From positions 128,001 to 192,000 of the forward strand of contig CAWAGQ010000003.1 of assembly GCA_963781585.1 (NCBI GenBank): 64,000 nucleotides of DNA, read 5' to 3'. Position numbers and translations under genes: made by a program. How positions within the stretch are numbered: the first letter of the stretch is position 1; each line of letters opens with the position of its first letter. This DNA is from an uncultured Gemmatimonadaceae bacterium. GTDB lineage: Bacteria; Gemmatimonadota; Gemmatimonadetes; Gemmatimonadales; Gemmatimonadaceae. Of this stretch, positions 2,216-63,402 are shown piece after piece. The notes below the pieces were generated by a model. The model saw only the letters and a program-made list of their open reading frames with translations. It was not told the origin of the DNA and did not search any database.

Positions 2216-2921
2216 GTGATCCTCGCGTGTTGAGGGCCTGTTCCGTCTCATCCGCCGCTCAGCCCTCTGCCGGGCGGTGGACCTTCGCTGTTGCACCTAT
2301 GCGCCGGGCGCAGCGGTGCAGGTGGGGGTGGGAGTACCACAGAAGCTCGTCGGGGCGAGATATGCCAAGCGCGTCCTTTCCCACCGCACCAGGGATCTCA
2401 CCCACTTCCCTTCGTGACAGCGCCGCAACGAGGTCGTGACCCCTTTGCGAGCCTGTCTCGCGAAATTCGCCTGCATGCCGATAGTCGGTCCCGGAAAGGA
2501 ATGCGTTGAACCTAACGACGCATGTAGCACCGCCAGGCACGGACCCGGTACCTGCTGACCGGCCCGTCCCCGCGATTTATCGGTTCATGACGAGCCCCAT
2601 ATTGCTCGTCCCCACAAGGAAGCGCAAGACGGCGTTTGAGGACTCGTTGGGACGGACCGACGCGCCCGCGATGGCGGGGGGACGAGTGGACCTAAGTTCG
2701 CCTCAGGTCAAACGATCCTGCGCTCCCGGGACACCCCCGATCCACGACAAAATCCCGCATCGATTACTCTGATTTCGGGGCATTCCCCAGCTGCTTCCGG
2801 AGGCCTTGAATTACCGGAATCCCGCCGTTCGGAGCACGCCGTTCCGGCCGGCGCCGGCGCCTGCCGCTCTTCTATATAGGAGTGAGCAGACATGGGAATC
2901 AGCGGACCGCGAAACCCTGGA

Positions 2922-2955
2922 GAGGATGGAGAGTGTCCATCCACTCTCCATCCTC
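2922..2955 (-). terminator. 14-bp stem hairpin downstream of SusC copy 2 (terminator or mRNA stabiliser)
   Basis: GAGGATGGAGAGTG-N6-CACTCTCCATCCTC, 16 nt after the stop at 2972. The U-tract is weak. Confidence 0.55.
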
Positions 2956-2971
2956 CACCGGGTCTTGCCAC

Positions 2972-5900
2972 CTAGAAGCGGGTCTGCAGTGTGAGCGTGA
3001 AGGTCCTCGTGGGAGGATAGCCGTAGCCGGTCGACGCACCCACTGCATCCGAGTTGACCGCTCGGCTGTTGCCCCCGACCTCGGGATCCCATCCCAGGTA
3101 ATCCGTGATGGTCCAGAGATTCCGCCCATCCGCGCTGATGCTCCAGTCACCAACCCCGCGCACCGGGCCGATGTTGTACGAGAGGCTCACCTCACGCAGC
3201 TTCGTATAGGAACCCTTCATGATGGTGATGTTGCTGCCGCCGAGCACGTTGTACATGCCGCTCACGCCGTTGTTGTTCTCCGGCGACGTACCGCGCCAGT
3301 AGTACCCCATCGGCTTCGCCGTCTCGACGGTCTTCCCATCCTGGTCTTCCCACCGGACGTTGAAGTCGCCGAGCGACCAGTGGATTTCCGCGTTGTACAG
3401 GCGGTTCCCGTAGCTCCCGTCCACGAGCGTATACAGCGTGAACCGCTTGTAGTTGAAGTTCTGCGACAGCGACAGATGGAAGTCCGGGAGGGAATTCCCC
3501 GAATGCACGAGAATCTCCGATCCTGTGGAGTCCCGCATGCCCATCAGCATCCCCCAGTGCACGGTGTTCTGGCCCCACGGGGTCTGCACCACACCACCCG
3601 CCGCCAGGCAATTGATGATGCCGGTCTGGCTGACATTCTGACCGTTTACCTGGCAGCCGCCGAGCTGTGACTGCCACAGGTTCTTGGTGATCCCTTCACC
3701 CGGATCGTAACCACCGGTCCACACCAGAAATCCCTCGCTGTTCAGCTGATACGACTTGCCAGCGCCGCAGTCGCCCTGGAACTCGGTCGGCAGCTCCGAG
3801 CACGCGCGCAGGAAGTGCTTCCCCCACAACTGGCCAATCCGCTCGCCGACCCGGAACTGAAACTGCGTGTTGCCATTTCCCGTGGTTCGCGTAAACGGCG
3901 GCACATCGAGGCCGGTGATGACGCTGCGCGTGCGGTCGTACGAAATCCGCGACGTCCACACCACGTTCCGGCTCGTAACCAACGGCACGTTCAACGATGC
4001 TTCCCACGTCTTCCCATCCAGCTGCCCCGCGTTCCGCCACTGCGTGCTGAATCCCGACGACGACGACACCGGGACTTCGAGCATCTGGTCGGTCGTGATG
4101 TCCCGCGCGTAGGTCAGCGTCAGTCCGTACTTGCTGAACAACTCGGCGTCGATCCCGTACTCGGTCTCGGTCGTGTTCTCCGGCTTCAGATTCTTGTTCC
4201 CGAGCTGGCTCGCCGACAGCGTCCCGCCCGAGCCGATGTTGAATGTCTCGTACTGGTACGACTGGCCCGGCCGGCCACCGGCCGTCCCCACCGAGGCCCG
4301 CAGCTTGAAGTCGTTGAGCGCGCCCTTGAAGAACCACCACGGCTCATCCGACAACCGCCACGCCATCGACGCCCGGTAGTACGAGTGCCACCGCTGCGCC
4401 GCCCCGAACAGCGAACTGCCGTCGCGACGATACGTCGCGTCGGCCAGATACCGCCCCTTGTAGTCGAACGCGATCCCGCTCAATACGCCCATTGCCCGCG
4501 ACGACACGTTGCTCGAGCTCGGCGCGCTTTGTACTGTCGCATTCCGGATGTAAAGCACGCCCGGCACCGTCAGCGTCCTGCCTGACGCTGAAACGTCATG
4601 CCCGTCCTGCCGCTCGAAGTTGTACGACGAGTTCAACCGGACGTTCAGATCGCGGAAGCCGAACGGATTGTCGAACCGCCCCGTCCCGGTCAGCGCCACG
4701 TTGTACGCCTGATCATTCGTATTGCCATGCGAGATCCTGCCGAGGTAGTTCGTGCTCTGCGACGCCGACGTCACCCGGTAGCCCTTCTCGGTCAGCGAAT
4801 AATTGTCGTTCCGCCGCACGTCGAGGCTCGTCACCGACTGGAACTCCAGCCACGAGAACGGCGTGAAACGCCCCGTCAACGACCCGAGGTACCGGTCCAC
4901 GTTGGTCCGCGACTCGGCATTCTCCGTGTCGTAGAGGATGTTCGCGTTCTGCTTCCCCTGGTTCATCGGGTTCGATCGGATGAAGAGCCGCCCGTAGTCG
5001 TCCCGAGCGAGCAGGTTCACGCCGGCTGGCGCCCGAGTGAGGCGGAACGTGGAGAACCCGGGGTAGGTCGTCGTCTTCGCGAAGGTGGTCGCCATCTGGA
5101 AGCTCAGATCCTCGCTGATCGTCTGATCGGCGTTGAGGCGCGCCGTCTTCCGGCGATACCCCTGCAGTCCGCGAACCGACCCTTCCTGATAGAGCCCGCC
5201 CAGACTGGCGAACACACCCGTCTCGCCAAACCGCGCCGTCATGTCCAGGTGGGAGTCGTTGTACGCCCCGGGCAGCACCGCCTGCGCAATCGGGTTGTAC
5301 CGCACCGGCCACGGATTGATCTGGAACGTGCCCTTGAGGTAGGGCTTCTTGGCCGTCGCCGAAATCCCGAAGTCCCGCGTGAACAGGTAGGGATCCAGGG
5401 CATCCGGCGTCGGCACGTTGTTGATCCGCTTCGCTTCCTGCGCGAAATCGACCACCATGCTGCAGATCGGATAACCCGGCACCACCGCGCAGAACTTGTT
5501 GTTCGTCTCGTCCATCTCGATCAGATGGTACTTCGAGAACGGATACTCGGTCTGCATGTCCTGGAAGCCGTACTCCGAGCGCACGCTGAAGCGCGCCCCC
5601 TGGCCGGCATTGCGGGCGCCCTTGGTCGTGATCTGGATGACGCCGTTCTGGGCGCGCGAGCCGAACGTAGACGACGCCGCCGCGCCCTTCACCACTTCGA
5701 TGCTCTCGATGTCGTTCGGATCGAGATCGGTCATCGAGCCGTTCAGAATCACCCCGTCCACCACGATCAGGGGATCGAGCGGCCGGTTGATCGACTTGAC
5801 CCCGCGCAACAGGATCGACGGCGCGGTGCCCGGCCGCCCGTCCGGCAGCACGATCTGGGCGCCGGTGACCTTTCCCTGCAGCGCGGTGAGCGCGCTCGCC

Positions 5901-6352: not shown

Positions 6353-6893
6353 GTGTCCCCCGGGGTGTGAACCCTGTCTTGCGTCGCGATGCAACGCTCT
6401 CCTGGTCAGCGTCACTGCGCGTGCGCACGGCGCCCCTCCTTGCCACCGTGCGTGCTGAGGTGAGACAGCGATACTTCGGATCCTATCGATCTACGGCACA
6501 GCACTCCTTGCGAAAATCCTTCGGAGCCTAACGATGGCACCAAGCAGCGATTGACTCGGACCCGATGAATTCGGACCCTAACTATTAATCCAAAAAGGAA
6601 GGCGGGAGCCAACCCGCCGAAAGTTCAGTCAGAGCCTAACGATACGTGACATCTTGGCGCGTGCAGATTACCTCAGCGCCCGTCGGTTCGTCCCCGGCAC
6701 CGACGCCCTGTCACAGTACCCATATTGCGTCCAACTGCCGGGAAAGCGCAAGTCACGACTGCCGTGGCGCGCCGATTCCACAGCGTAAGTTGTTATAGAA
6801 ACGGCAGATACATGGCTACGCTGTTTTCTCCCCGTCGACACCGGTCAATGTGCGGATCGGCAGGCCGTGCGCCGAGCACCTTCCCGCGCATGG

Positions 6894-7158: not shown

Positions 7159-8634
<1,476 letters not shown>

Positions 8635-9551: not shown

Positions 9552-11123
9552 TCATCCGACGGTGACCTTCTTGTACTCTTCGATCCCTCGCCGCAACGCC
9601 GACTCGGCATCCTTCGAGAGCGTGCGTTCCTTGCGGACGCCATCGCCGACCTGCGGGAACTGCGTGGCCATGAAGTCATGGAAGCCACGTTCCCACTCCC
9701 GGATATCCTTCACCGCGACGTCATCGAGGAATCCGTTGGTCACCGCGAAGATGATCATCACCTGCTGCTCGACCGGCATCGGCTGATACTGCGGCTGCTT
9801 CAGGACCTCCACCGTGCGGGCGCCGCGCTCCAGCTGCTTCTTGGTCGCGGCGTCGAGGTCGGAAGCGAACGCCGAGAACGCCTCGAGTTCGCGGAACTGC
9901 GCGAGGTCGAGGCGGAGACGCCCGGCGACCTGCTTCATGGCCTTGATCTGCGCTGAACCGCCCACCCGGGAGACCGAGATGCCGACGTTGATGGCGGGAC
10001 GGACGCCGGCGAAGAAGAGGTCGGTCTCCAGGAAGATCTGGCCGTCAGTAATAGAAATGACGTTGGTCGGGATGTAGGCCGACACATCGCCCGCCTGCGT
10101 CTCGATGATCGGGAGCGCGGTCAGGCTTCCGCCCGACTTGAAAATCATCTTGTTGTCGACGACATCCGGGTCGTCGCGGAGCTTGGCGGCGCGTTCGAGC
10201 AGGCGCGAGTGGAGATAGAACACGTCGCCTGGGTAGGCTTCGCGGCCTGGCGGACGTCTGAGCACGAGGGACAGCTGGCGGTAGGCGGCGGCCTGCTTGG
10301 AAAGGTCATCGTACACGCAGAGGGTCGGTTTGCCCTCGTGGTACATGAAGTACTCGGCCATGGCACAGCCGGAGTAGGGCGCGATGTACTGCATCGGCGC
10401 CGGGTCCGAAGCGGCGGCGCAGACGACGATGGTGTATTCCATGGCGCCCGCCTGCTTCAGCTTTTCGACGACCGCGGCCACGGTGGACGCTTTCTGTCCG
10501 ATGGCCACGTAGACGCAGATGACGCCCTGCCCCTTCTGGTTGATGATGGTGTCGATCGCGATGGCCGTCTTGCCGGTCCCGCGGTCGCCGATGATGAGCT
10601 CGCGCTGGCCCCGGCCGATCGGGATCATGGCGTCGACGGCCTTGAGCCCGGTCTGCAGCGGCTGGTTGACCGGCTGCCTGACGATGATACCTGGCGCGGG
10701 AGAGTCGACGCGCCGCGTCATGGTGCTGTGGACCTCACCCAGTCCGTCGATGGGACGTCCCAGGGGATCGACCACCCGTCCGACGAGCGCCGGACCGACC
10801 GGCACATCGAGCACGCGCGTCGTCCGGCGCACTTCGTCGCCCTCCTTCAGCTGGAGGTAGTCCCCCAGGATGACGGCGCCGATGTTGTCTTCCTCGAGGT
10901 TGAGGGCGAGGGCGGTGATGATCGCACCGGTTTCCGACGAGGTGACCGCGAGCATCTCTCCCGCCATCGCCTTCTTGAGGCCGTAGATGCGCGCGATGCC
11001 GTCTCGGACCTCGAGCACGGTACCGACCTCTTCGACATCGAGCTCGTGGAGGTCGGCGGCCTCGATCTCGCGCAGGAGGATGTCCTTGATCTCGCCTGGC
11101 CGGAGCAGGGTTTCGCTGGGCAT
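9552..11123 (-). CDS. atpA: ATP synthase F1 alpha subunit
   Basis: [40 protein letters not shown]. Confidence 0.99.
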
Positions 11124-12631: not shown

Positions 12632-12633
12632 CG

Positions 12634-13389
12634 TCAGGCTCCCAGCTTCGCGGTCACGTCGATGTCGGCGCGCCCTTCGACAAACTGCCGGACGACCGGG
12701 TCAGTGGATGTCCGGATCGAATCGACGTCACCGACCTCGCGGACCCTGCCCTCGTAGAGCATCGCGATTCGACTCCCCACGCGGTACGCACTGCGCATGT
12801 CGTGGGTGATGACGATGCTGGTGACGCCGAGCTTTTCACGCATGCGGATCATCAGCTCGTCGATGACGGCGCTGGTCACCGGGTCGAGCCCGGTCGTGGG
12901 CTCATCGTACAACAGATACTTGGGCCGAAGGGCAATGGCCCGCGCCAGGCCGACCCGCTTCCGCATGCCGCCCGACAGCTCGGCCGGATACCGTTCCTGC
13001 ACGTTAGGCAGGTCGACCAGTTCGAGGGTCTCGTGTACCCGCTCCTGGATCTCGTCCTCCGAGTGCCGGGCCTGCTTGCGGAGTCCCATGGCGACGTTCT
13101 CGCCGATCGTGAGCGAATCGAAGAGCGCGGCGAACTGGAACACGTAGCCGATGTGGGTGCGCAGCTCGTACAGATCGCGGCGCTTCAGTCTGGGTACTTC
13201 CAGGTCGTCGACGAAGACGGTGCCCCGGTCGGGCGTGAGGAGCCCCACGATATGCTTGATGGCGACCGATTTGCCCGATCCCGAGTATCCGATGATCACC
13301 ATCGTCTCGCCTTCGGCCACGTCGAGGGTGAAGCCGGACAAGACCTTTTTCGCGCCAAAGGACTTGTGGATGTCGACGAGCTGGATCAC
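12634..13389 (-). CDS. mlaF: ABC transporter ATP-binding protein, MlaF/Mkl family
   Basis: GYSGSGKS, FQFAALFDSLT, LSGGMRKRVGLARA, YDEPTTGLDP, THD. Confidence 0.85.
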   Translation of the reverse strand: MIQLVDIHKSFGAKKVLSGFTLDVAEGETMVIIGYSGSGKSVAIKHIVGLLTPDRGTVFVDDLEVPRLKRRDLYELRTHIGYVFQFAALFDSLTIGENVAMGLRKQARHSEDEIQERVHETLELVDLPNVQERYPAELSGGMRKRVGLARAIALRPKYLLYDEPTTGLDPVTSAVIDELMIRMREKLGVTSIVITHDMRSAYRVGSRIAMLYEGRVREVGDVDSIRTSTDPVVRQFVEGRADIDVTAKLGA

Positions 13390-13687: not shown

Positions 13688-13726
13688 ACACGACCGACGT
13701 TCGCGAGCGGGTCGACGAAGGGTTCG

Positions 13727-14683
13727 TTAGGCGGCAAAACTGCTCAGCGCCCGGCCAACGTCGCCCTCGCGGAGGCGCTTCAGCGCCCGATCGCGCAACT
13801 GCCGCACGCGCTCGCGGGTGACACCCAGCATCGACCCGATTTCCTCGAGCGTGTGCTCGCGACCGCCCTCGAGTCCGAAATACAGCCGAAGGACTTTCGC
13901 GTCACGCGGAGGCAGCGTGCCGAGGGCGAGCTCGATCTCGTCGGTGAGGAAGCGATTCATCGCTTCCTCCTCGGTGTCGGGCATCTCGTCGGCGACGAAT
14001 CGCTCGATGAGGGAGCGGTCGCCTTCCGGATCCATCGGGGCGTCGAGGCGCACGTCACCGGTGTTGAGAGCCGCCAGCGACTGCACGACGTCCACCGAGA
14101 GTCCGGTGAGGTGCGCCAGCTCCTCGGGGCTGGGCTCTCGACGCAACTTCTGACGCAGAATCTCCGACGCCTTGATGATGCGCGACAGGTCCGCCGTGCG
14201 ATTCAGCGGCACGCGGACGGTGCGTCCCTGACGGGCCAGCGAGGAAAGAATCGCCTGCCGAATCCACCACACCGCGTACGAGATGAACTTCACGCCCTGA
14301 TCCGGATCGAACTTCCGCGCGGCGGTCAACAGTCCCACGTTCCCCTCCCCAATGAGATCAATGAGGGGGAGACCTCGATTCTGGTACTTCTTGGCCACCG
14401 AAATCACGAATCGCAGATTCCGCTTCACGAGCTCCTGAAGCGAATCCTGATCACCGGCACGAATGCGCCTGGCAAGCGCGATCTCCTCCACTGGCTTGAG
14501 GAGGGGATAGGTACTGACCTCGTAGAGGTATTGATCAAGAATGTCGCGCTCCGGTTCGCTGGGCGCGATCCCCGGTGGGGCGGCGCGGCGGCGACGGCGC
14601 TTTACTTCGGGCATGTCGGGAAGTCCTCGGCTCCCAATGGGAGTGTTTGAATGGGGCGAGAGCGGCGGAGCTGAGCCACTCAT
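13727..14683 (-). CDS. RNA polymerase sigma70-family factor (RpoD/RpoS-like, no region 1.1); the start may be 14614
   Basis: NLRFVISVAKKY, DLIGEGNVGL, KFISYAVWWIRQ, region 4 TLEEIG...VTRERVRQ. Confidence 0.93.
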   Translation of the reverse strand: MSGSAPPLSPHSNTPIGSRGLPDMPEVKRRRRRAAPPGIAPSEPERDILDQYLYEVSTYPLLKPVEEIALARRIRAGDQDSLQELVKRNLRFVISVAKKYQNRGLPLIDLIGEGNVGLLTAARKFDPDQGVKFISYAVWWIRQAILSSLARQGRTVRVPLNRTADLSRIIKASEILRQKLRREPSPEELAHLTGLSVDVVQSLAALNTGDVRLDAPMDPEGDRSLIERFVADEMPDTEEEAMNRFLTDEIELALGTLPPRDAKVLRLYFGLEGGREHTLEEIGSMLGVTRERVRQLRDRALKRLREGDVGRALSSFAA

Positions 14684-15755: not shown

Positions 15756-15789
15756 GCAGACGCCCCGCGAGATGCGGGGCGTCTGCTTT
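15756..15789 (+). terminator. Intrinsic terminator between tRNA-Pro and the convergent flgM-like operon
   Basis: GCAGACGCCCCGC-GAGAT-GCGGGGCGTCTGC-TTT. Confidence 0.75.
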
Positions 15790-41299: not shown

Positions 41300-41311
41300 C
41301 GAACTGCGGGC

Positions 41312-48392: not shown

Positions 48393-50653
48393 AAGCCGGA
48401 GGTCGGAGGGCGGCGGCGGCGGGGAATGGCGAAGGGATTGGGGACTCCTCGAGGCGCCGGCCGCTTCGACGAATCGCCGGCGACGGTTCCGGCCGACCCC
48501 TGCAGACCGAAGGCGGCACGGGGCGGGATGGAAAACGGATTCGCGTCCGTGCAGAACCGATGGGGCTCGGTGCCAAGGAGGAAATATTCCGTGTACGAAT
48601 GCTCCAGACAGGCCGGCGTGGCGAGCAGTCCCGTTTGCGAGTCGATGTCGCGCGCGACCACCGAAGCCGGCATCGGCCAGTCCGGGGGGGCCGGTTTCCG
48701 CCGGTACGTCTCGAGCATGAAGGCGGTGTACGCGGGTGCAGCCAGCCGGCCACCCTGCGCGTTGACCATGATCTTCCTCGGTTTGTCGAACCCCATCCAG
48801 ACACCGGCCACCAGATCGGCCGTGTATCCGATGTACCACACGTCCGCGCCGTCGTTGGTGGTCCCGGTCTTGCCGCCGGAGGGTACGCGGAAACCGGCGC
48901 TCCAGACGCTGGCCGAGGCCGTCCCGCGGAGCACCACGTCCTTCATCATGCTCACCATGATCCACGCCTCGGACGGCGTGAGCACGACGGTGGACCTCGC
49001 GCTCGGCTGCCAGAGCAGGTTGCCCTCCTGATCCTCGACCCGGACGATCCCGTTAGGCTCGGTGCGCGTGCCAAGGTTCGCGAAGGTGGTGTAGGCCCCC
49101 ACCAGGTCCAGCGGGTAGACCTCGGCCGATCCGATGTGGATGGACGGATAGGGCGGAATGGGCGTACTGATGCCGAAGCGGCGCGCCTCGTCGACTACCG
49201 CCTGCTCACCGAGTTCCATGCCCAGCCTGATGGCGATCAGGTTGCGAGACATGTAGAGGCCCTGACGCATGGTCATCGGGCCCTCGAACTTGTTGTCGTA
49301 GTTCTGCGGGGTCCACAGCGATCCGTCCACCTGGGGCACGCTGATCGGCGCGTCGTCGATGAGCATCGACGGGGGCCGGCCGCTCTGGATCGCGGTCGAA
49401 TACACGATCGGCTTGAACGTGGAGCCGGGCTGGCGCATCGCCTGGGTGGCGCGATTGAACTTGGAATCGTCGTAGTCCCGGCCCCCCACCATCGCTCGTA
49501 CCGCGCCATCGCGCGGGTCGATCGCCACGAACGCCCCCTGCAGGTACGGCGACTCGGTGTCGAGATTCTCGTCGCGCACGCCGCGCGCGATGTACTGCTC
49601 ATACGTGAGATGCCGGTACGGACCCGACTTCCCTCCCTCAATCGCCCGGAGCTGATTCTCCAGTGCCCGTTCCGCCGCCGACTGCATGTCGAGATCGAGG
49701 GTGGTATACACTTTCAGACCCTGATCGTAGAGGCGATCACCGAACCGATCGTGGAGCTGCTGACGGACCCACTCGACGAAATACGGCGCGACCTCTCCCG
49801 ATTCGATGCGCCGCGCGAGGTGGAGCGGATAGGCCTTGGCCAGGCTGGCTGCCGACGAACTGACCTCGCCCTCACGCCGCATCAGCTCAATGATGGTGTT
49901 GCGGCGCTGGACGGCCCGCACCGGATAGCGGCGCGGATTGTATCGACCCGGGGCCTTGGGAAGCGCCGCCAGCGTCGCCGCCTCGGCAAGATTCAGATCG
50001 CGTACCGACTTGCCGAAATAGCGCTGGGCCGCCGTCTCGACGCCGTAGGCGCCGCTGCCGAGGTTGATCTGGTTCAGGTACAGCTCGAGAATCCGGTCCT
50101 TCGAGTAGCGGCGTTCGATGTCGCTTGCAACCCGGACCTCCTTCAGCTTGCGGACCAGCGACTTGAAGATCAGGGCCAGGGAGGACGAACGCTTCTCGCG
50201 CGAGATCTGCTCGGGGAAGACATTGCGCGCGAGCTGCATGGTGATGGTCGAGAAGCCCTGCTCGAACGAACGCGCGAGGAGGTCGCGCGCGGCCGCTCCG
50301 GGAATGCGCCAGAGGTCGACGCCGTGGTGCTGGTAGAAGCGCTTGTCCTCGATGGAAACGAAGGCGTCACTCACGACCCGCGGAATGGAATCGAGCGGCA
50401 CGAGCGTGCGCCGTTCCAGGCCAAGCTCACCCAGGAACCGGCCGTCCACGGCGTACAGGCGCGCGGTCTCGCGCGGCGAGTACTGCTCGAGCACGCCAAT
50501 GGAGGGGCACCGGTTCCCCTGGCACACCAGACTCCAGGCGGCGAGCGGAAGGGCCAGCGCGAACCCGGCGCCGAACGCCGCCGCGAACCCGAGCGCGCGC
50601 GTTAGGCCCGCATGACGGCGGACAAAGCGGTTCTGAAGGAATTCCGAGAACAT
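48389..50653 (-). CDS. Class A penicillin-binding protein (PBP1A)
   Basis: Transglycosylase EDKRFYQHHG, STITMQLARN, RKLKE; transpeptidase STFK, SRN, KTG. Confidence 0.95.
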   Translation of the reverse strand: MFSEFLQNRFVRRHAGLTRALGFAAAFGAGFALALPLAAWSLVCQGNRCPSIGVLEQYSPRETARLYAVDGRFLGELGLERRTLVPLDSIPRVVSDAFVSIEDKRFYQHHGVDLWRIPGAAARDLLARSFEQGFSTITMQLARNVFPEQISREKRSSSLALIFKSLVRKLKEVRVASDIERRYSKDRILELYLNQINLGSGAYGVETAAQRYFGKSVRDLNLAEAATLAALPKAPGRYNPRRYPVRAVQRRNTIIELMRREGEVSSSAASLAKAYPLHLARRIESGEVAPYFVEWVRQQLHDRFGDRLYDQGLKVYTTLDLDMQSAAERALENQLRAIEGGKSGPYRHLTYEQYIARGVRDENLDTESPYLQGAFVAIDPRDGAVRAMVGGRDYDDSKFNRATQAMRQPGSTFKPIVYSTAIQSGRPPSMLIDDAPISVPQVDGSLWTPQNYDNKFEGPMTMRQGLYMSRNLIAIRLGMELGEQAVVDEARRFGISTPIPPYPSIHIGSAEVYPLDLVGAYTTFANLGTRTEPNGIVRVEDQEGNLLWQPSARSTVVLTPSEAWIMVSMMKDVVLRGTASASVWSAGFRVPSGGKTGTTNDGADVWYIGYTADLVAGVWMGFDKPRKIMVNAQGGRLAAPAYTAFMLETYRRKPAPPDWPMPASVVARDIDSQTGLLATPACLEHSYTEYFLLGTEPHRFCTDANPFSIPPRAAFGLQGSAGTVAGDSSKRPAPRGVPNPFAIPRRRRPPTSGF

Positions 50654-50805: not shown

Positions 50806-52110
50806 ATGCACCACCCGACCTTCCTGGACGAGCTCCGCTGGCGGGGCCTTCTTCACCAGTGCACCGAGGGCGCCGGGGAGGCGCTGACGCGCGGTCCGGT
50901 GGCCGGATATTGTGGGTTCGATCCGACCGCTCCGAGTCTGCACGTCGGCAGCCTGATTCCGGTGATGGGACTCGTGCACCTGCAACGTGCCGGCCACATT
51001 CCGGTGGTGCTGGTGGGTGGCGGCACCGGGTTGATCGGCGACCCGAGCGGTAAACCGAACGAGCGCCCACTGGCCGATCCGGCCGTCACCGAAGCGAATG
51101 CCGAAGGGGTGCGCGCCCAGCTCGCCCGCTTCGTGGATTTCAGCGGCCCCAATGCAGCCCGCTTGCGGGATAATCGCGACTGGCTGCAACCCCTCGGGGC
51201 GATCGAGTTCCTGCGCGATGTGGGAAAGCACTTCAGCGTCAACGCGATGCTGGCCAAGGAGTCGGTGCGGACACGACTCGAGGCCGGCATCTCGTTCACG
51301 GAATTCGCCTACATGCTGCTCCAGTCGTATGACTTCCTGGAGCTTTACCGCCGCGACGGTGTGACCCTGCAGATCGGCGGAAGCGATCAATGGGGCAACA
51401 TCACCATGGGCGTGGACCTCGTGCGGCGCACCGCAGCGGCCGAGGTTCACGGCGTCACGCTGCCGCTGATCACCCGCGCCGACGGATCCAAGTTCGGCAA
51501 GACGGAGAGCGGCAACGTGTGGCTGGACCGGCGCCTGACGCGCCCGTACGGCATGTACCAGTTCTGGGTCAATACCGACGACCGCGACGTGGGCCGATAT
51601 CTGCGCTGGTTCACCCTCCTGGAACACGACGAGATCGAGGCGCTGGAGCACGCGGCGACCGAGCGCCCGGAAACGCGCGAGGCGCAGGCCGCGCTGGCGC
51701 TCGACGTCACCGCACGGGTTCACGGAGACGAGGACGCGCGAACCGCGCGCGATGCCTCCCGCGTTCTGTTCGATCGCACCGCCGATCCCCGCTCCTTCCC
51801 GGCGGAGGTGTTCGCGGTGTTGCGTGACGAGATTCCGTTCAAGCGCCTGGAGACGGTGGCGCTCCCCACCGGGGCCGGCGGCACCTCTCTGTCGGTCCTC
51901 GACGCGTTGGTGGAAACCGGACTCGCCAAATCGAAGGGCGACGCACGCCGCCTGTTCCAGCAGGGCGCCGTCTCCGTCAACGGCCGGCGACTTGCCAGGG
52001 ACGAGCATTTTGTCGCCGGCGCCGAGGCCCTGGCGGGGTCGTACTTCCTGATCCGCAAGGGAGCGCGCGAGATGGCGCTGGTGGAGATCGCGCGGGAAGC
52101 GCAACACTGA
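50806..52110 (+). CDS. tyrS: Tyrosine--tRNA ligase
   Basis: YCGFDPTAPSLHVG, QIGGSDQWGNI, KFGKT, C-terminal S4 domain. Confidence 0.98.
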   Translation: MHHPTFLDELRWRGLLHQCTEGAGEALTRGPVAGYCGFDPTAPSLHVGSLIPVMGLVHLQRAGHIPVVLVGGGTGLIGDPSGKPNERPLADPAVTEANAEGVRAQLARFVDFSGPNAARLRDNRDWLQPLGAIEFLRDVGKHFSVNAMLAKESVRTRLEAGISFTEFAYMLLQSYDFLELYRRDGVTLQIGGSDQWGNITMGVDLVRRTAAAEVHGVTLPLITRADGSKFGKTESGNVWLDRRLTRPYGMYQFWVNTDDRDVGRYLRWFTLLEHDEIEALEHAATERPETREAQAALALDVTARVHGDEDARTARDASRVLFDRTADPRSFPAEVFAVLRDEIPFKRLETVALPTGAGGTSLSVLDALVETGLAKSKGDARRLFQQGAVSVNGRRLARDEHFVAGAEALAGSYFLIRKGAREMALVEIAREAQH

Positions 52111-54360: not shown

Positions 54361-55542
54361 TCACGTGTGCCCTCCTCCCTGGGCAGCGTCGCGCGCGAAC
54401 GCGAGCGTATCGCGCGCGACGCGGTCCCAGTTGAAGTACTCCTCCACCGCCAGCCGGGCGCAGGCGCCGAATCGGCGACGGAGCGTCTCATCGTGCAGGA
54501 ACGTGCGCACGGCTCCGGCGACGGCGTCCGCATCGGTCGACGGCACAACCAGCCCCGTTTCCCCGTCGCGAACCGCGGAGCGCACGCCGCCCGAGTCGCC
54601 CGCCACCGAGGGCACGCCGCTGGCCGCCGCTTCCACGAAGGAGATGCCGAAGCCTTCGGCATCGATCGCCTGCTCCACCCGCGATGGACCGACGTACACG
54701 GTACTGGTTGCGTATGCGTCGGCCAGTTCATGGTCGCTCAACCGGCCCGCCAGCACCAGGCGATCGGACACGCCAAGCTCGCGCGCGAGGCGCGCCAGGC
54801 GTGAGCCATCGGGCCCTTCGCCAACCACGACGTAGCGCAGTGCCGGGAACTCGGGGGCCAGCTTGGCCAGGGCCCGGATGGCTACATCCTGTCCCTTGTG
54901 GGGCACCAGACGCGCCACCGTGATCATCACCGGCCGCGTACCTAACGAGAAGCGCCGGCGCAGGGCTCCGGTGTCGCACCGCGGCGCGAACTGCGCCGGA
55001 TCGGTCCCCAACGGAATGGCCCGGACCGGCGGCCTCCGCGTGAGACCCAGACGGCCCATCACGTCGCGCGCCAGTTCCGCCGTCCAGGCCGAAATCGCGA
55101 CCACGCCGCAGGCGCCGCCGAATATCCAGCGAGCCGCTCGGCGTTTCATCGGGCTCCGCATCTTCAGGTCGCGCTCCTTGAGAAGATCGCCGCCGTTGAC
55201 ATAGAGCACATAGGGTCGCCGCACACGGGCTCGCGCCAGCCACACCACGTAGCCGCAGGGCCGGATGTTGCCGCAGTGCACCAGGTCGACCCCGCGCAGG
55301 ACATCGGACGCCAGCGACGCCGCCCAGCGAACCTGGTTGGTGAACCGATTGGCGTGGCCGAACGGGAAGCGCTGTCGGTGGATGACGTACGGTTCGTGCG
55401 TGTCGAAGGCGTCGTCTTCCCGAAGGGCAACGGTGGACACAATGAGTTCGTCAGGCGCGAATCGCCGGCAGAGCTCCACGTGGCGTCGCGCCATACCCCC
55501 AAGGTCGGGACCGAAGTCCTGCGTGACGAAGAGGTGTTTCAC
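54361..55542 (-). CDS. Glycosyltransferase family 4
   Basis: TQDFGPDLGG, VARLVPHKG, EGFGISFVEA; GTG start at 55542. Confidence 0.9.
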   Translation of the reverse strand: MKHLFVTQDFGPDLGGMARRHVELCRRFAPDELIVSTVALREDDAFDTHEPYVIHRQRFPFGHANRFTNQVRWAASLASDVLRGVDLVHCGNIRPCGYVVWLARARVRRPYVLYVNGGDLLKERDLKMRSPMKRRAARWIFGGACGVVAISAWTAELARDVMGRLGLTRRPPVRAIPLGTDPAQFAPRCDTGALRRRFSLGTRPVMITVARLVPHKGQDVAIRALAKLAPEFPALRYVVVGEGPDGSRLARLARELGVSDRLVLAGRLSDHELADAYATSTVYVGPSRVEQAIDAEGFGISFVEAAASGVPSVAGDSGGVRSAVRDGETGLVVPSTDADAVAGAVRTFLHDETLRRRFGACARLAVEEYFNWDRVARDTLAFARDAAQGGGHT

Positions 55543-59270: not shown

Positions 59271-60878
59271 CTAGTGTGGAGCGCCGGGCGATGGATGGGG
59301 CGTCAGCAGCGCCAGCGGCACGATGCACTCCTCGGGCGTGACCCCTCCGTGGAGGAACGATCCGCGATAGCGGCTCTGGTACTCCCGCAACTTCGTGGGA
59401 TAGACGAAGAACACCCCGTCCACGGCGAGCAGCGTATTGGCGCCGAGCCCGCGGCGCGGGAGCCGCAGCGTGTCTTCGTTCGGGAACAGGAGCGCCAGTT
59501 CGGCGCGCTCGGCCCGCAGGTCCTCGCCGAACTTGTAGCGCAGGTTCGACGTCGCATCCCGCTTGGCGTAGACGGTGGCCGGGGTGGAGCAATGAATGGA
59601 CCCGTGGTCGCTGGTCAGCAGCACCGTGATCCCGCGTCGGGCCGCCTCGCGCAGAACGCCCAGCAGCGGGGACCGCTGAAACCACTGCAGCGTGAGCTGG
59701 CGCAACGCGATCTCGTCGCGCGCCACTTCGTAGAGGATGGCGCTCTCGCTGCGTCCATGCGTGAGGAGATCGACGAAGTTGAAGACGAACGCGCTCACTC
59801 CGTCGTGCCCGATCACGCTCCCAAGCCGACGCTCCAGATCGTCCGAATCGGCGGGCGACGAGATCTTCTCGTAACGAACGGGTGCCTGAACGCCGAGTTC
59901 CGCGAGTTGCGCCTCGAGCAACTGCCGTTCGTGCGCATTCAGGGTCTCATCGTCGCGCTCGCCCCACCAGTCGGGGAACCGCGCGGCGATCTCCCCCGGA
60001 AACAGCCCACTGAAGAGGGCGTTCCGGGCGTACGGCGTGGCCGTGGGAAGAACCGCGAACTGATGCGTCGTTTCCACCACGAACAGGCTGGTCAGCGCGC
60101 TTTCCAGCACCCGCCACTGATCCAGTCGCAGGCAGTCGACCACGATCAGGACGACGTTGCCGTCACGCCGCAGGACCGGCAGCAGAAACTCGCTCACCAC
60201 GTCGATCGACAACGGCGGCCGCGCGCCCTCCAGCTCGCGCAGCCAGCGCGGGTACTCGGCGAACATGAACGCCGCGAATTCGCGATGCATGTCGGGATAG
60301 AGACCCCGCAGCGACTCGTACAGGCCCATCTCCCCCGCTTCGGCCAGCTCGATGTCCCAGCGCACCAGCTCATCGTAGCGCTCCACCCAGCCACGCCAGT
60401 CCAGCACCCGGTCGCGTTCGAGCTCGATGGCGCGAAAGCGGTCCACGAACGAGCGGGCGAGGGCCTGCCGGCGAATCCGCGGCCCCTCGAGAATCCGTGT
60501 CACCACCGACAGGACCTGTCGCGGATTGACCGGCTTGACCAGATAGTCGCTGACCTCGGTGCCTAACGCCTCGCGGAGCACCGCGTCGTCCTCGCTCTTG
60601 GTGACCATCACCACCGGCAGCGCCGGCGCGATCTCCCGCATTTCGCGATAGGCGTCCAGCCCGCGCCTGCCGGGCATCTGCTCGTCGAGCAGCAGCACGT
60701 CGTACGTGTGCCGACGCAGCATCTCGATGGCGTCGTCGGCGTTGGTGGCGACCGCCACGTCGAAACCCCTGTCGGAGAGGAACAGCCGATGCGGCTCGAG
60801 GAGTTCCGCTTCGTCGTCCACCCACAACAGCGACTTGGGCGGGTGCCCGACCTTCGTCGCGAGCCGGGAGAGGGGCAT
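59271..60878 (-). CDS. PorX-like response regulator (REC + PglZ/alkaline-phosphatase-like domain)
   Basis: LLWVDDE...LLDEQMPG...VMVTKSE...KPVNPRQ; DCLRLDQW, LPTATPYARNALFSG, NFVDLLTH, TSDHG, HGGVTPEE. Confidence 0.88.
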   Translation of the reverse strand: MPLSRLATKVGHPPKSLLWVDDEAELLEPHRLFLSDRGFDVAVATNADDAIEMLRRHTYDVLLLDEQMPGRRGLDAYREMREIAPALPVVMVTKSEDDAVLREALGTEVSDYLVKPVNPRQVLSVVTRILEGPRIRRQALARSFVDRFRAIELERDRVLDWRGWVERYDELVRWDIELAEAGEMGLYESLRGLYPDMHREFAAFMFAEYPRWLRELEGARPPLSIDVVSEFLLPVLRRDGNVVLIVVDCLRLDQWRVLESALTSLFVVETTHQFAVLPTATPYARNALFSGLFPGEIAARFPDWWGERDDETLNAHERQLLEAQLAELGVQAPVRYEKISSPADSDDLERRLGSVIGHDGVSAFVFNFVDLLTHGRSESAILYEVARDEIALRQLTLQWFQRSPLLGVLREAARRGITVLLTSDHGSIHCSTPATVYAKRDATSNLRYKFGEDLRAERAELALLFPNEDTLRLPRRGLGANTLLAVDGVFFVYPTKLREYQSRYRGSFLHGGVTPEECIVPLALLTPHPSPGAPH

Positions 60879-61068
60879 GTCTCCGAATGTAGTTGTCGCG
60901 GTTGGCTTTGCCGAGTGCGGCGGGCGGGTCGCCGGCGCCGGGCGTCGTTCCCCACCGGAGCGCGCCGGGCTCCGACACCGTGCCTTGGCCGCGCGCGCGC
61001 GAATCCGCGCCAGAAGAGCGCGACCCCGGCGGACTCGCGACCGGGGCCGCGGAAGTAGATTGTCGGCC

Positions 61069-61470
61069 ATGCGTTCGCTGCCGCCGTACGCGCTCGCCGT
61101 CCCCGAGTTTCGCTTTCGCGCGCTTGCCGCAGTGGCGGGACGCGCAAGCCTGGGCGGCGCGCGGGAGCTCGTGATCGGTGTGCTGCTCGGCGCACGCCTG
61201 ACCGATGGAGTGGTCGGTGAATACCCGCTTCCACTGTCCGTTCGGCAGCAACGTGCGGCCGCGGCGCGCATATGGCTCGGCTCCCTCGCCCTGCCTCCTC
61301 CCACCAGGGCGACCTTGCTGCGACTGCTCGACGCGACCGCCACCAACGACCGGCGCGCGCTCTCCGAGACGTTCGATGCCCTGCTTGCCCTCGCGTCTCC
61401 GGCACTCGACGGGCCATCGCGCAACGAACTGCGACGCGTGTCGGGGACCGTGGTCGTGGAATCAGCATGA
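61069..61470 (+). CDS. Hypothetical helical protein
   Basis: Coding-like sequence MRSLPPYALAVPEFRFRALA...; ATGA-coupled to the downstream gene. Confidence 0.6.
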   Translation: MRSLPPYALAVPEFRFRALAAVAGRASLGGARELVIGVLLGARLTDGVVGEYPLPLSVRQQRAAAARIWLGSLALPPPTRATLLRLLDATATNDRRALSETFDALLALASPALDGPSRNELRRVSGTVVVESA

Positions 61471-62351
61471 CCAACGAAGCGAATCGCGAACAGAGGGCCG
61501 GCCGCACCGCGGCTGGCGCATCCGGTCGCCGCTCCGACACTTCGGTGCTGGTGCGATCCGTGCTCGACGGGAAGCTGATCGGCGACCGGGTTCAAACCGG
61601 GTTTCCGGGGCTCGACACGCTGCTCGGCGGCGGCATCCGTCGCGGAGACGTGGTGGTCCTGGGGGGTGACGCGGGAGTGGGAAAGTCCGCACTCGCTCTC
61701 GCGATCGCCCGACGCGCCGCGGCGCTGGGGCATTCGGTGGGATTCCTCTCCGGGGAAATGTCCCCCGAGCGCGTCGCCGAACGCCTGCTGGCGCTTGAGG
61801 GGCGGGTCAGGGTGGACGACCTGCGTCGGTCGCCCCTGGAGGACGCGACCCATTCCGCCGTGGCTGCGGTGGCCCTGCCGCTCCGCGAACGGGCGCCAGT
61901 CCTGGCCACGATGTCCGACGCCGGCGTCGCGGGTGTGTCGGACTTTCTCGTGGATTACCTGGGCATGGAACTGGTGGTCGTGGATCCGGTGCAGTTTCTG
62001 GCGAATGGCCAGAGCTCGCTGGACGACCAGTTGGCAGGCATTGCACGCGGGCTCAAGGAGCTGGCATTGCGTCGCGCCGTAGCTGTGCTGGCCGTGACGC
62101 ATTTTGGCCGAAGCGTACGCGAGCGGTCCGACCCGCGCCCCGTGCTGGAGGACTTTGGCGGACACGGCGGCATCCGTCAGCAGGCGGACGTGGTCCTTGG
62201 GCTGTTTCGCGAGGAGCTGTATCTCCCCTCACCGCATGTAGAGGGCGCCACCGAACTGCACGTGCTGAAGAACCGGAACGGACCCCGCGGCTTCGTCGAT
62301 CTGTACTTCTACAAGCAGTGGTTGCGTTTCGAAGATGTGATGGAGGAATAG
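61467..62351 (+). CDS. DnaB-like helicase, C-terminal (RecA-fold) domain only
   Basis: TGFPGLD, Walker A GDAGVGKS, SGEMS, RPVLED, KNRNGP; no N-terminal DnaB domain. Confidence 0.8.
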   Translation: MTNEANREQRAGRTAAGASGRRSDTSVLVRSVLDGKLIGDRVQTGFPGLDTLLGGGIRRGDVVVLGGDAGVGKSALALAIARRAAALGHSVGFLSGEMSPERVAERLLALEGRVRVDDLRRSPLEDATHSAVAAVALPLRERAPVLATMSDAGVAGVSDFLVDYLGMELVVVDPVQFLANGQSSLDDQLAGIARGLKELALRRAVAVLAVTHFGRSVRERSDPRPVLEDFGGHGGIRQQADVVLGLFREELYLPSPHVEGATELHVLKNRNGPRGFVDLYFYKQWLRFEDVMEE

Positions 62352-62391
62352 GCCAAAGGCCAGAGGTTGGTGCTCGGAGAGCAGCTCGGAA

Positions 62392-63402
62392 ATGATTCGT
62401 CGCGCCTTCATCGTATTCGCATCGCTGGCCGGACTGGCAACGGGCGCGTGTGCGCCGTCGCCTGCGCCGCCCGGCCCGGCACGTGTGCCGGCCCCGACTC
62501 CGGCTCCGGTACCGGTACAGCCGGCGCCGCCAGTGGTCGTCATGCCGGCCGAGGGCCGAATCGACGTCGGCGCGGCCGGCGCCCTGTGGTACCAGGTCGC
62601 CGGATCCGCCCGTGACACAGTGCTCGTGCCGTTAGGCCTCTACCTGCGTTCCGCGCTCGCACCGCTCGCGAGGTCGCACACCCTCATCTTCTACGACCCG
62701 CGACACCGCGGCCGCTCCGACTCGTACGCCGACACCACCCTGTCCACGCTCGACAACGACGTACGCGACCTCGAATCGGTCCGTGCGGCGTTCCGGATCT
62801 CCCGGGCCGCGATCATCGGGTTCTCCCATTTTGCCGCCGTCGCCGTGGCGTACGCCGCCCAGAATCCGGACCACGTCTCGCGACTCGTCCTGCTGAGCCC
62901 GATCGAACCGACGGACAGCCTTGCCACCGCGTTTGCGCCGCCCGATCGTCGCGCACGGATCGACACGACCGCCGCCCGCCGCCTGCTCAAGATGCGCGCC
63001 GCCGGCCGGGACACGCTGGCGTCGCCGGAATATTGCGAGGCATACTGGCGAGTGAACGCACCGCTGTTCGTGGGCGACACGCTGCACGCCGGACGGCTGG
63101 TGCCGACCTGGTGCCAGTTCGCCAACGAGTCGCCGCGTCGCATGGGTGACCAGATCGCGCGGGAGATGGCATCGTTAGGCGCCGGCTACGATCTGTCGCG
63201 CCTGGCGGCGCGCGTGGCCGCGCCTGCCCTGGTGATCGGCGGAGGCGCCGACCTCATCGTCAACCCGGCGAGTGCCGCGGCGTGGGCACGGCGCATTCCC
63301 GGCGCGCACGCCCTCACGGTGCCGGGCGCGGGGCACTTCCTCTGGCTGGACGATCCAACAGAGGTACTGAACGCGATCGATGGTTTTCTCCGGGGTGGGT
63401 GA
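62392..63402 (+). CDS. Alpha/beta hydrolase lipoprotein (proline iminopeptidase-like)
   Basis: Lipobox TGA-C, Pro-rich linker, YDPRHRGRS, nucleophile elbow GFSHF, GAGHF. Confidence 0.78.
   Translation: MIRRAFIVFASLAGLATGACAPSPAPPGPARVPAPTPAPVPVQPAPPVVVMPAEGRIDVGAAGALWYQVAGSARDTVLVPLGLYLRSALAPLARSHTLIFYDPRHRGRSDSYADTTLSTLDNDVRDLESVRAAFRISRAAIIGFSHFAAVAVAYAAQNPDHVSRLVLLSPIEPTDSLATAFAPPDRRARIDTTAARRLLKMRAAGRDTLASPEYCEAYWRVNAPLFVGDTLHAGRLVPTWCQFANESPRRMGDQIAREMASLGAGYDLSRLAARVAAPALVIGGGADLIVNPASAAAWARRIPGAHALTVPGAGHFLWLDDPTEVLNAIDGFLRGG

Follow-up and report, generated by a model that had tools for sequence, protein, structure and literature searches.

Given that one octamer, CGTTAGGC, recurs along the 64-kb window considered here (the whole stretch of Gemmatimonadaceae DNA that was analysed), we questioned whether it reflects composition and codon usage or a DNA signal kept throughout the genome, and what might read such a signal. 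A first-pass annotation of the window had reported 16 exact copies (10 versus 6 in the two orientations), three copies of CGTTAGGT and one of GGTTAGGC, with 2–3 copies of the octamer expected. The 16 copies (10 plus, 6 minus) were reproduced at identical coordinates and the variants in the same numbers, while the excess was stronger than claimed, the expectation being nearer 1: 100 dinucleotide-preserving shuffles of the window averaged 0.97 copies and never held more than 4, none of them coming up to 16. The copies of CGTTAGGC are as follows, with codon contexts resting on crude in-house gene calls.

6526..6533, minus: intergenic
6634..6641, minus: intergenic
8299..8306, minus: sense GCG-TTA-GGC (A-L-G) in a 479-aa ATP-synthase-beta-like ORF, 7159..8598 (minus)
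13002..13009, plus: antisense CTG-CCT-AAC-GTG (L-P-N-V) in ORF 12634..13389 (minus)
13725..13732, plus: overlaps the TAA stop (GCC-TAA) of ORF 13727..14683 (minus)
15855..15862, minus: TCG-TTA-GGC (S-L-G) in a short ORF, 15789..16049 (minus), gene call uncertain
19370..19377, plus: gene boundary; GCC-TAA is the stop of ORF 19372..19572 (minus) by the present call
22384..22391, plus: GCG-TTA-GGC (A-L-G) in ORF 21615..22664 (plus)
33734..33741, plus: GCG-TTA-GGC (A-L-G) in ORF 32917..34194 (plus)
41294..41301, minus: overlaps the TAA stop (GCC-TAA) of ORF 40676..41299 (plus)
44326..44333, plus: CCG-TTA-GGC (P-L-G) in ORF 42849..44603 (plus)
49051..49058, plus: antisense GAG-CCT-AAC-GGG (E-P-N-G) in ORF 48389..50653 (minus)
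50600..50607, plus: antisense GGC-CTA-ACG (G-L-T) in ORF 48389..50653 (minus)
60561..60568, minus: GCG-TTA-GGC (A-L-G) in ORF 59271..62165 (minus)
62630..62637, plus: CCG-TTA-GGC (P-L-G) in ORF 62392..63402 (plus)
63173..63180, plus: TCG-TTA-GGC (S-L-G) in ORF 62392..63402 (plus)

Eight copies thus read NCG-TTA-GGC, two CCT-AAC and one CTA-ACG, three lie over a TAA stop, and two are intergenic. Most codon contexts assigned by the first-pass annotation stand, namely TTA-GGC at 8299, 22384, 33734, 44326, 60561, 62630 and 63173, CCT-AAC at 13002 and 49051, CTA-ACG at 50600, and the TAA stops at 13725 and 41294. The copy at 19370 differs: it had been read as TTA-GGC in a flgN-like gene on the plus strand, and is called here as the TAA stop of a minus-strand ORF.

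Abundance of the word and its variants

The genome holding the window (G000; 5.715 Mb in 17 contigs) carries 1442 copies of CGTTAGGC (724 plus, 718 minus), compared to 217, 89, 44 and 51 expected under Markov models of order 0, 1, 2 and 3, respectively, and the word ranks first among 8-mers by observed/expected ratio at orders 1, 2 and 3. It is therefore about 30 times commoner than chance in this genome (1442 versus ~50). The excess survives codon-shuffled as well as Markov nulls, with 1088 copies in called CDS against 50.9 ± 6.3 in 12 within-gene synonymous-codon shuffles. Sequence flanking the copies holds almost no information. Similar 8-mers are not equally frequent: near variants are rarer, with the exception of a sister word absent from the first-pass annotation, CGTCAGGC (the C-form, as opposed to the T-form CGTTAGGC), which is enriched ~3-fold in G000 and occurs 13 times in the window.

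899..906, plus: C-form CGTCAGGC
4580..4587, minus: C-form
10676..10683, minus: C-form
12632..12639, plus: C-form
24540..24547, plus: C-form
24753..24760, minus: C-form
36492..36499, plus: C-form
40171..40178, plus: C-form
42274..42281, plus: C-form
45976..45983, plus: C-form
48135..48142, plus: C-form
51533..51540, minus: C-form
55449..55456, plus: C-form
2510..2517: one-off variant CGTTAGGT
34423..34430: one-off variant CGTTAGGT
54940..54947: one-off variant CGTTAGGT
42856..42863: one-off variant GGTTAGGC

Genome-wide, CGTTAGGT is 5.4-fold above its order-3 expectation in G000. The C-form is over-represented in G000, G001 and G009 and is the sole enriched form in G010, and CGTTTGGC is enriched in G005.

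Placement, strand and spacing

The fraction of TTA codons inside the word, one of the checks proposed at first pass, is half (710 of 1411 in G000), and codon usage is therefore distorted by the word. Intergenic copies make up 273 of 1442 (19%), and uncalled DNA 18% of the genome; density is equal in coding and non-coding DNA. Among the peptides that permit the word, [ASTP]LG is filled by it in 710 of 4595 cases (15.5%) and PN[VADEG] in 260 of 1108 (23.5%). Given the intergenic share and the similar occupancy in both orientations, the signal lies at the level of DNA, and neither of RNA nor of peptide.

Occupancy of the same peptides is also similar on the G-rich and the other strand (16.6% versus 15.9% and 24.1% versus 25.4%), intergenic copies are oriented 80:83 relative to GC skew, and orientation is mixed in five other motif-rich genomes. 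The earlier impression of no obvious polarity is thus borne out, as the copies, once peptide availability is counted, favour no orientation with respect to either gene strand or GC skew. One G000 contig shows a mild excess following GC skew, because of gene orientation and peptide availability.

Copies avoid proximity, and the scale of avoidance follows motif density: gaps below 500 bp number 68 in G000 against 172 expected, and gaps below 200 bp number 38 against 66 in the dense genomes G009 and G197. Only six close inverted pairs (minus then plus) occur in G000. Foreign DNA was ruled out as the source of motif deserts, since the two largest motif-free stretches contain ordinary core or metabolic genes: one carries alaS, recX, recA, ftsK, accC and lptD, and the other encodes metabolic enzymes.

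Conservation and lineage distribution

We compared site positions with a same-genus relative, G001, of which 427 kb aligned to G000 at 88.7% nucleotide identity. Of 100 CGTTAGGC sites, 83 were unchanged, compared to 44% of all 8-column windows; main-frame sites were identical in 51 of 62 cases (controls 42%) and intergenic sites in 11 of 12 (controls 39.5%). Motif positions, whose conservation in orthologs had been suggested as a check, are therefore conserved in this relative above frame-matched controls. Between genera sites turn over, albeit in a small sample, with 3 of 22 common-context sites shared between G009 and G000 (2.9 expected if independent).

About 30 of 77 Gemmatimonadaceae genera are motif-rich, copy number between sister genera ranges from 6 to 7821 (roughly 1000-fold), and outside the family enrichment was found in only one genus. 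In an RpoB tree (FastTree), rich genera are scattered and richness flips repeatedly; 10 of the 52 rows represented a neighbouring long ORF and were ignored (G067, G028, G097, G006, G104, G040, G025, G060, G101 and G037). Scanning 200 kb from each of the motif-poor genomes G059 and G003 revealed no alternative hyper-abundant word. The few CGTTAGGC copies of motif-poor relatives are the ends of cassette-array repeats, and G013 and G015 contain same-strand clusters spaced ~550 bp apart that resemble such arrays; a giant repeat gene was rejected as their source, there being no tandem repeat and no long ORF. Overall, the inference of a lineage-specific, highly iterated, non-polar motif acting at the DNA level (akin to HIP1, uptake sequences or protein sites) was supported by every check that could be run.

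A possible self tag for DNA uptake

Hyper-abundance, strand-symmetric placement at the DNA level, maintenance between species, short-range repulsion, a patchy lineage distribution and the presence of uptake genes are all observed. We tentatively read CGT[T/C]AGGC as a double-strand self tag for DNA uptake or self-recognition, comparable to DUS/USS, although our confidence falls somewhat short of even. A candidate sequence-specific protein would read the word in either orientation, most likely in the setting of natural transformation via type IV pili, ComEA and ComEC, and this reader would form part of the uptake machinery. Fragments bearing the word would be preferentially taken up and recombined, and synonymous or tolerated changes creating it would therefore spread (molecular drive), while changes destroying it would be lost. 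The word would then build up to the same extent in non-coding DNA and wherever the protein permits, at places such as [A/S/T/P]-Leu-Gly or Pro-Asn, and an extra copy near an existing one would add little.

The genome encodes ComEC, a DprA match (223 bits), a PilQ-like secretin (268 bits), four PilT, and a ComEA-like gene immediately upstream of pilB-pilT-pilC. The three genera in which no ComEC was found (g23, 0 of 3 genomes; g49, 0 of 4; g68, 0 of 4) are all motif-poor, and the ComEA-like gene is likewise missing from their representatives. Based on one representative genome per genus, as in all rich/poor tallies here, ComEC is present in 28 of 30 rich and 41 of 44 poor representatives and the ComEA-like gene in 25 of 30 and 37 of 44, respectively; being near-universal, poor genera included, neither explains the distribution of the motif. 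With Pfam ComP_DUS, G000 yielded no ComP-type receptor; the model gave only weak matches, in 12 of 77 genomes, and exceeded its cut-off in one, a motif-poor genome. Methylase and competence genes had been proposed for phylogenetic profiling, and none of those tested (C5-methylase, Vsr, ComEC, ComEA-like and ComP_DUS) tracks motif richness.

To our knowledge, some dialect of DUS is found in every genus of Neisseriaceae. DUS are reported to be enriched in genome-maintenance genes. The motif-poor relatives with no alternative word and the core genes in motif deserts count against an uptake tag, as does a literature search by title that returned nothing on transformation in Gemmatimonadota. Titles and abstracts on natural transformation or competence in Gemmatimon* yielded none on this word, the combination of Gemmatimonadetes and DNA uptake sequence yielded nothing, and the matches listed for CGTTAGGC and CGTCAGGC comprised only primers and unrelated sequences; no paper describing the word was found in the literature searched.

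Alternative readings

All statistical features of the word would equally suit recognition within the cell, as envisaged in the main rival reading, a HIP1-like site that a nucleoid-associated or chromosome-organising protein binds and that selection keeps spread along the chromosome. HIP1 (GCGATCGC) is a cyanobacterial octamer described in PMC5861425 as 15- to 300-fold over-represented, as conserved both within ORFs and between them, and as playing no part at the peptide or RNA level, its function still being unknown. The word described here shares those statistics (strong over-representation and conservation in ORFs, with nothing to suggest a peptide, RNA or regulatory role), its spacing is more even than random, and it is independent of uptake-gene presence. 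However, it is non-palindromic (CGTTAGGC versus its reverse complement GCCTAACG), and the methylase connection drawn for HIP1 (to orphan methyltransferases, with C5-methylases discussed; PMC4390886) is absent: C5-methylase PF00145 occurs in 6 of 30 rich and 15 of 44 poor representatives and in 0 of 5 genomes of the densest genus. PF01555 and PF02384 (N6/N4 methylase families) were not found in G000, and an Eco57I-type protein occurs in 70 of 77 genomes regardless of motif. The 1000-fold copy variation between sister genera and the repeated flips over the tree would also be odd for a signal of core architecture, and repulsion scales with density rather than with a fixed footprint. We consider a HIP1-like role unlikely on balance, while giving it appreciable weight.

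The word may instead mark self for a defence or repair nuclease that is attenuated by, or spares, DNA bearing it in either orientation, so that host would be told from foreign DNA. A lineage-specific, repeatedly gained and lost, dense, evenly spread word maintained by selection would be consistent with this, and a mobile defence gene would fit the gains and losses on short branches; yet known examples such as Chi are strand-polar and the word is not, and no candidate gene was found. We regard this explanation as improbable.

A link to integrons deserves mention because CGTTAGGC, as went unremarked at first pass, matches exactly the 3′ terminus of GCSGCTKANCTCVRRCGTTAGSC, a degenerate primer for attC given in PMC2669170 (primer end CGTTAGSC). 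The octamers might be R-box half-sites for IntI or a paralogue (landing sites or decoys), or an uptake tag matched to the attC core. Besides the primer match and the cassette-array repeats ending in the word in motif-poor relatives, G000 has a true IntI (434.5 bits) with adjoining attC-like sites and three copies of a 2572-bp element bounded by CGTTAGGC in inverted orientation, and an integron integrase is present in 122 of 201 genomes of the family. The core consensus of attC and attI sites is GTTRRRY, which the C-form (GTCAGGC) does not fit. Furthermore, IntI is found in 19 of 30 rich versus 29 of 44 poor representatives and was not found in the motif-rich G081 (97% complete, 5 contigs), the 303-aa recombinase encoded by the repeated 2572-bp element is sporadic (7 of 77 genomes, rich and poor alike), and recombination at thousands of sites in essential genes would be harmful. 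Upstream flanks resembling the attC primer accompany 12 of 1442 copies, the same rate as for a control word (5 of 746); genomic copies were accordingly rejected as attC sites, their flanks being at background and the close inverted pairs so few. Such a link therefore seems a slim prospect. A broader proposal, which we also hold to be a long shot, is a ComP-independent self-DNA-tag system in part of the Gemmatimonadaceae, repeatedly switched on and off by genera, whose tag is the universal attC crossover core, such that cassette DNA would be preferred if the reader acts in uptake. If true, environmental gene cassettes would all bear the preferred tag, these soil bacteria would be biased to capture integron cassettes, and transformation and integrons would be functionally coupled. 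Either coincidence, and a striking one, accounts for the identity with the attC core, or two gene-exchange systems are linked.

A by-product of biased repair (methylation-linked or of the very-short-patch type) or of a mutational hot spot is very unlikely, and this reading is largely refuted. The T- and C-forms differ by one transition, and G000 has a Dcm-Vsr pair (C7:477177-478451). However, the two forms seldom interconvert, as only 1 of the 121 C-form sites aligned to G001 reads as the T-form there, and in the main frames such a change would be non-synonymous (Ser/Leu, Asp/Asn). No Vsr was found in the four dense genomes G009, G197, G048 and G057, C5-methylases are unassociated with the motif, and sites are conserved rather than churning. 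The first-pass annotation had allowed for a mutational process, which in pure form is now unlikely, as sites are conserved to a far greater degree than frame-matched controls and neither C5-methylase nor Vsr tracks the word.

A strand-polar signal such as Chi (RecBCD/AddAB) or KOPS/SRS (FtsK/SpoIIIE) might be argued from the octamer length, from a density of about one copy every 4 kb and from the mild skew of one contig (accounted for above). It has next to no likelihood and is already refuted for G000 by equal occupancy of the replication strands, the even intergenic orientation and the mixed orientation in the five other rich genomes, unless strand assignment based on GC skew is wrong.

Comparison with known systems

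Chi and KOPS/SRS are strongly strand-polar with replication; the word resembles them in length and density, but it is non-polar and its excess is far larger. With HIP1 it shares over-representation and positional conservation, whereas HIP1 is a palindrome linked to methyltransferases and CGTTAGGC is asymmetric with no methylase tracking it. Its likeness to attC consists of eight identical letters and of genuine cassette arrays, present in G000 as well as in relatives, whose repeats end with the word; unlike attC sites, genomic copies are single, in both orientations and inside ordinary genes, with no attC flanks, and motif-rich genera do not track IntI.

The uptake-tag reading rests its comparison on DUS/USS, from which the word differs in belonging to another phylum, in being 8 bp long with nearly uninformative flanks, in that about half of Gemmatimonadaceae genera have no such word and, with respect to the DUS of Neisseria, in that a ComP-type receptor was not found in G000. 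Like DUS/USS, it is a short non-palindromic word with hundreds to thousands of copies equally on both strands, intragenic in preferred frames, conserved in close relatives and over-evenly spaced, with lineage variants, and competence genes are present in G000 too. Genome-wide tags maintained by selection are well known from few lineages only (Neisseriaceae, Pasteurellaceae and cyanobacteria). CGTTAGGC would add to these three a case from a phylum that is abundant in soil and has cultured members, and could serve as a self-DNA mark for metagenome binning and as a flag for recent transfers. Tagged and untagged sister genera across the family tree, some three orders of magnitude apart, offer a contrast that the classic systems lack, and one that makes both the identity of the reader (by phylogenetic profiling) and the origin of the tag (selection versus molecular drive) testable.

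An iterated octamer and its sister form

The first-pass annotation had proposed the octamer CGTTAGGC (reverse complement GCCTAACG; hereafter the T-form) as a candidate chromosome-wide DNA signal. All 16 exact copies claimed in the window were recovered in place, 10 on the forward and 6 on the reverse strand, as were the variants CGTTAGGT (n = 3) and GGTTAGGC (n = 1); 13 copies of a sister word, CGTCAGGC (the C-form), had been overlooked. Dinucleotide-preserving shuffles of the window yielded 0.97 copies on average (maximum 4), with 0 of 100 reaching 16. The genome that contains the window at C3:128001–192000 (G000; 5.715 Mb in 17 contigs, 67% G+C, completeness 93.5% and contamination 7.2% by the tool's figures) carries 1,442 copies (724 + 718), at similar density on all contigs. 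This excess held under both null models that the annotation had suggested: 44–89 copies were expected at Markov orders 1–3 (89, 44 and 51, respectively; 217 at order 0 and 484 at order 4), and 1,088 copies were observed in coding sequences (CDS) vs 50.9 ± 6.3 over 12 within-gene synonymous-codon shuffles. Among 8-mers with at least 100 copies, CGTTAGGC ranked first at orders 1 to 3, followed by its own overlapping pieces, and its flanks were nearly uninformative (C rare at −1; G or A at +1). Three other words enriched in G000 and in its congener G001, AAAGGCCA, AGGCCAAA and CAAAGGCC, derive from tandem 7-nt arrays, (AAGGCCA)n, and were rejected as kin of the octamer.

Nearly all single-base variants of CGTTAGGC were at background in G000. 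Relative to order-3 expectation, CGTTAGGT was enriched 5.4-fold, CGTTATGC 4.7-fold, TGTTAGGC 3.5-fold and the C-form 3.6-fold (1,519 copies, a raw count inflated by a CRISPR array at C7:~396085–401600 that contributes 78 copies, its 78 repeats having a period of about 71–74 nt and a 37-nt repeat that includes CGTCAGGC). In CDS, the C-form numbered 1,145 vs 394 ± 14 in synonymous-codon shuffles. Among 21 relatives compared, it exceeded the reversed-word control only in the T-form-rich G000, G001, G009 and, mildly, G005, and in G010, where the T-form was not in excess. Interconversion was rare, the T-form occupying 1 of 121 aligned C-form sites in G001. The signal is best written as CGTYAGGC, with preferences that differ by lineage; CGTTTGGC may be one such dialect in G005 (C1:1–200000, loci L040–L049), with 48 copies vs 9.4 expected, alongside 25 of CGTTAGGC.

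Placement in genes and on strands

Copies were assigned to reading frames using crude gene calls, based on ORF length and GC3 (4,143 ORFs covering 82% of G000).

Placement of the 1,442 copies of the octamer in G000 (crude gene calls)
Sense, NCG-TTA-GGC: 707
Antisense, xxG-CCT-AAC-Gxx: 259
Antisense, xGC-CTA-ACG: 68
Sense, xxC-GTT-AGG-C: 48
Stop-containing frame: 3
Across gene ends: 84
Intergenic: 273

Given the 82% covered by gene calls and the 273 intergenic copies, word density is the same in coding and intergenic DNA. TTA is the rarest leucine codon in G000 (0.9%), and CG-TTA-GGC holds 710 of its 1,411 occurrences, a fraction that the annotation had listed as a check; a tRNA-Leu(UAA) gene was found. 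The word spells 15.5% of [A/S/T/P]-Leu-Gly tripeptides (710/4,595), and its complement 23.5% of Pro-Asn-[VADEG] (260/1,108). Since these occupancies are similar, the 70:30 sense bias reflects the abundance of permitting peptides rather than a transcribed-strand preference. The absence of polarity suggested at first reading was also borne out: with replication strands assigned from GC skew smoothed over 100 kb, permitting-peptide occupancy was 16.6% vs 15.9% and 24.1% vs 25.4% by strand, and intergenic copies divided 80:83. Orientation was likewise mixed in stretches of G056, G171, G156, G197 and G009.

Conservation, turnover and spacing

Conservation of sites in orthologous DNA, another check named by the annotation, was strong within the genus. 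Over 427 kb aligned between G000 and G001 (88.7% identity), 83 of 100 G000 sites were identical in G001 (83/93 in the reverse direction), vs 44% of all 8-column windows. Identity was 51/62 for main-frame sites (42% for frame-matched controls), 11/12 for intergenic sites (39.5% in the control) and 75/121 for C-form sites. Between genera, placement looks independent: G009 and G000 have 22 aligned [ASTP]LG sites in common, with 8 motifs per genome and 3 coincident (2.9 expected), and G005 and G000 shared 2 sites (1.2 expected), both being small samples. Many motifs of the dense genome G009 (10 + 13, again small samples) fell where G000 has no permitting peptide, which suggests that the word can shift protein sequence too. 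Within G000 itself, contigs C5 (446 kb) and C8 (434 kb) share 343 kb of synteny at 88% identity, a divergence equal to that of G000 from the genus's other species; the pair represents two related replicons or else a relative co-binned with G000 (contamination estimate 7.2%).

Close neighbors were avoided. In G000, gaps below 100, 500 and 1,000 bp numbered 8, 68 and 211 vs 36, 172 and 322 expected under an exponential distribution, with a slight excess above 20 kb (14 vs 8.4). In the dense G009 and G197 (mean gap 810 bp), the deficit was limited to below about 200–300 bp (38 gaps under 200 bp vs 66 expected), and avoidance distance therefore scales with density. This is as expected if a nearby second copy brings little added benefit, and bears little resemblance to a fixed footprint. 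The largest motif-free stretch (C4:866742–905435, 38.7 kb, with just 4 C-form copies) contains alaS, recX, recA, ftsK, accC, pilT-like, surA-like, hutU/hutH and lptD, and the second largest encodes metabolic enzymes; we thus rejected foreign DNA as an explanation for these two deserts.

Patchy distribution across the family and phylum

Copies ranged from 1 to 7,821 per genome among 201 genomes in 77 genera of the family. When the first listed genome stood for each genus (counted by hand), 30 genera had at least 200 copies, 3 had 100–200 and 44 had fewer than 100, with counts in motif-poor genomes far below the reversed-word control. Counts were mostly uniform within genera, the exceptions being g54 (66 vs 3,479–4,141) and g21 (173 vs 858–1,991). 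Of 151 genomes sampled over the phylum, 119 lay outside the family, and none of these exceeded 91 copies except those of one genus of the sister family (g109 of f2; 181, 337 and 726 copies in G301, G318 and G319). These tallies include genomes flagged as unpublished (G008, G042, G043, G141, G251 and G278), G008 also being one row of the tree below; no claim depends on flagged genomes alone.

In an RpoB FastTree phylogeny (52 rows, 42 usable), G000 fell in a 10-row clade of nine motif-rich genomes and one intermediate (support 90), and the remaining rich genera were scattered; G056 (3,249 copies) was sister to G039 and G103 (37 and 38; support 99). Over all 52 rows, 10 of them not RpoB, the rich/poor label required 9 changes, at least 6 of these forced by well-supported branches. 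No substitute word was found in 200 kb each of the motif-poor G059 and G003 (top z about 13); z of CGTTAGGC was 17–93 in eight rich genomes.

A resemblance to integron attC sites

The few copies of motif-poor G015 and G013 terminate a conserved ~45-nt element, repeated on one strand every 500–650 bp and ending in ...GCCGCAGCTTAGGCGCnnnC-CGTTAGGC. A search there for tandem repeats or a long ORF found neither, and the loci thus resemble gene-cassette arrays. Similar same-strand clusters occur in G261, G264 and G295, the period over all these loci being 500–1,000 bp. The standard degenerate attC primer terminates in CGTTAGSC, as given in PMC2669170, and the octamer is therefore letter-identical to the conserved attC end.

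Integron-related features
G015:C95:1–20000 (L035) and G013:C3:1–9000 (L036), same strand: cassette-array-like repeats (sister family, same order)
G000:C7:185885–186829, reverse strand: integron integrase IntI (434.5 bits; TIGR02249 cut-off 265)
G000:C7:172173–174744, C7:~182856–185367 and C13:307514–310085: three near-identical copies of a 2,572-bp element, bounded by GCCTAACG...CGTTAG

The C7 locus of G000 is a chromosomal integron: several attC-like sites that terminate in CGTTAGGC follow intI downstream (C7 ~157000–185000), and because they are on its strand the cassettes appear co-oriented with it. The 2,572-bp element looks like a mobile integron-associated unit. Its 303-aa tyrosine recombinase shows 100% identity between G000 and G001, despite the 11% overall difference between the two genomes. 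This recombinase has a homolog adjoining intI in G022 and G075 and is sporadic (7 of 77 genomes). We rejected the genome-wide copies as attC sites, primer-like upstream flanks occurring at 12 of 1,442 copies and, in the case of a control word, at 5 of 746, and a functional tie of the word to integrons is improbable.

Candidate readers and comparison with known systems

None of nine association tests followed motif richness. Integron integrase (TIGR02249; 122/201 genomes) occurred in 19/30 rich vs 29/44 poor genus representatives, and C5-methylase (PF00145; 50/201 genomes) in 6/30 vs 15/44, with 0/5 in the densest genus. Vsr was found in G000 alone of five rich genomes, PF01555 and PF02384 had no match in G000, and an Eco57I-domain protein of about 1,060–1,140 aa was present in 70 of 77 family genomes irrespective of the motif. 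G000 has two long Eco57I-domain copies (C6:145483–146376 and C2:158783–159673) plus two other matches, and joins C5-methylase and Vsr domains in a single 790-aa open frame (C7:477177–478451), a Dcm-Vsr pair.

Among uptake genes, ComEC was detected in 184/201 genomes and homologs of the G000 ComEA-like protein in 65/77; ComP_DUS had no credible match in 77 genomes. ComEC was consistently absent from three genera, all motif-poor, which is compatible, as weak evidence from three genera, with a requirement for uptake genes that by themselves would not suffice. The ComEA-like gene of G000 (186 aa, HHH_3, 53.7 bits) lies immediately upstream of pilB (T2SSE + MshEN), pilT and pilC (C14:143982–149194) and is preceded by ORFs of 2,008 and 333 aa without Pfam match; the genome further encodes DprA, a PilQ-like secretin and four PilT.

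Taken together, CGTTAGGC is a genuine and very strong word at the DNA level, symmetric between strands and maintained by selection, of which we found no published description in the open-licence literature. A polar signal, a role as RNA or peptide, and a by-product of methylation or repair were rejected or are unlikely. The main rival reading is an intracellular site resembling HIP1, the iterated octamer of cyanobacteria. Our tentative preference is that the word behaves most like the DNA uptake sequences of Neisseriaceae and Pasteurellaceae.
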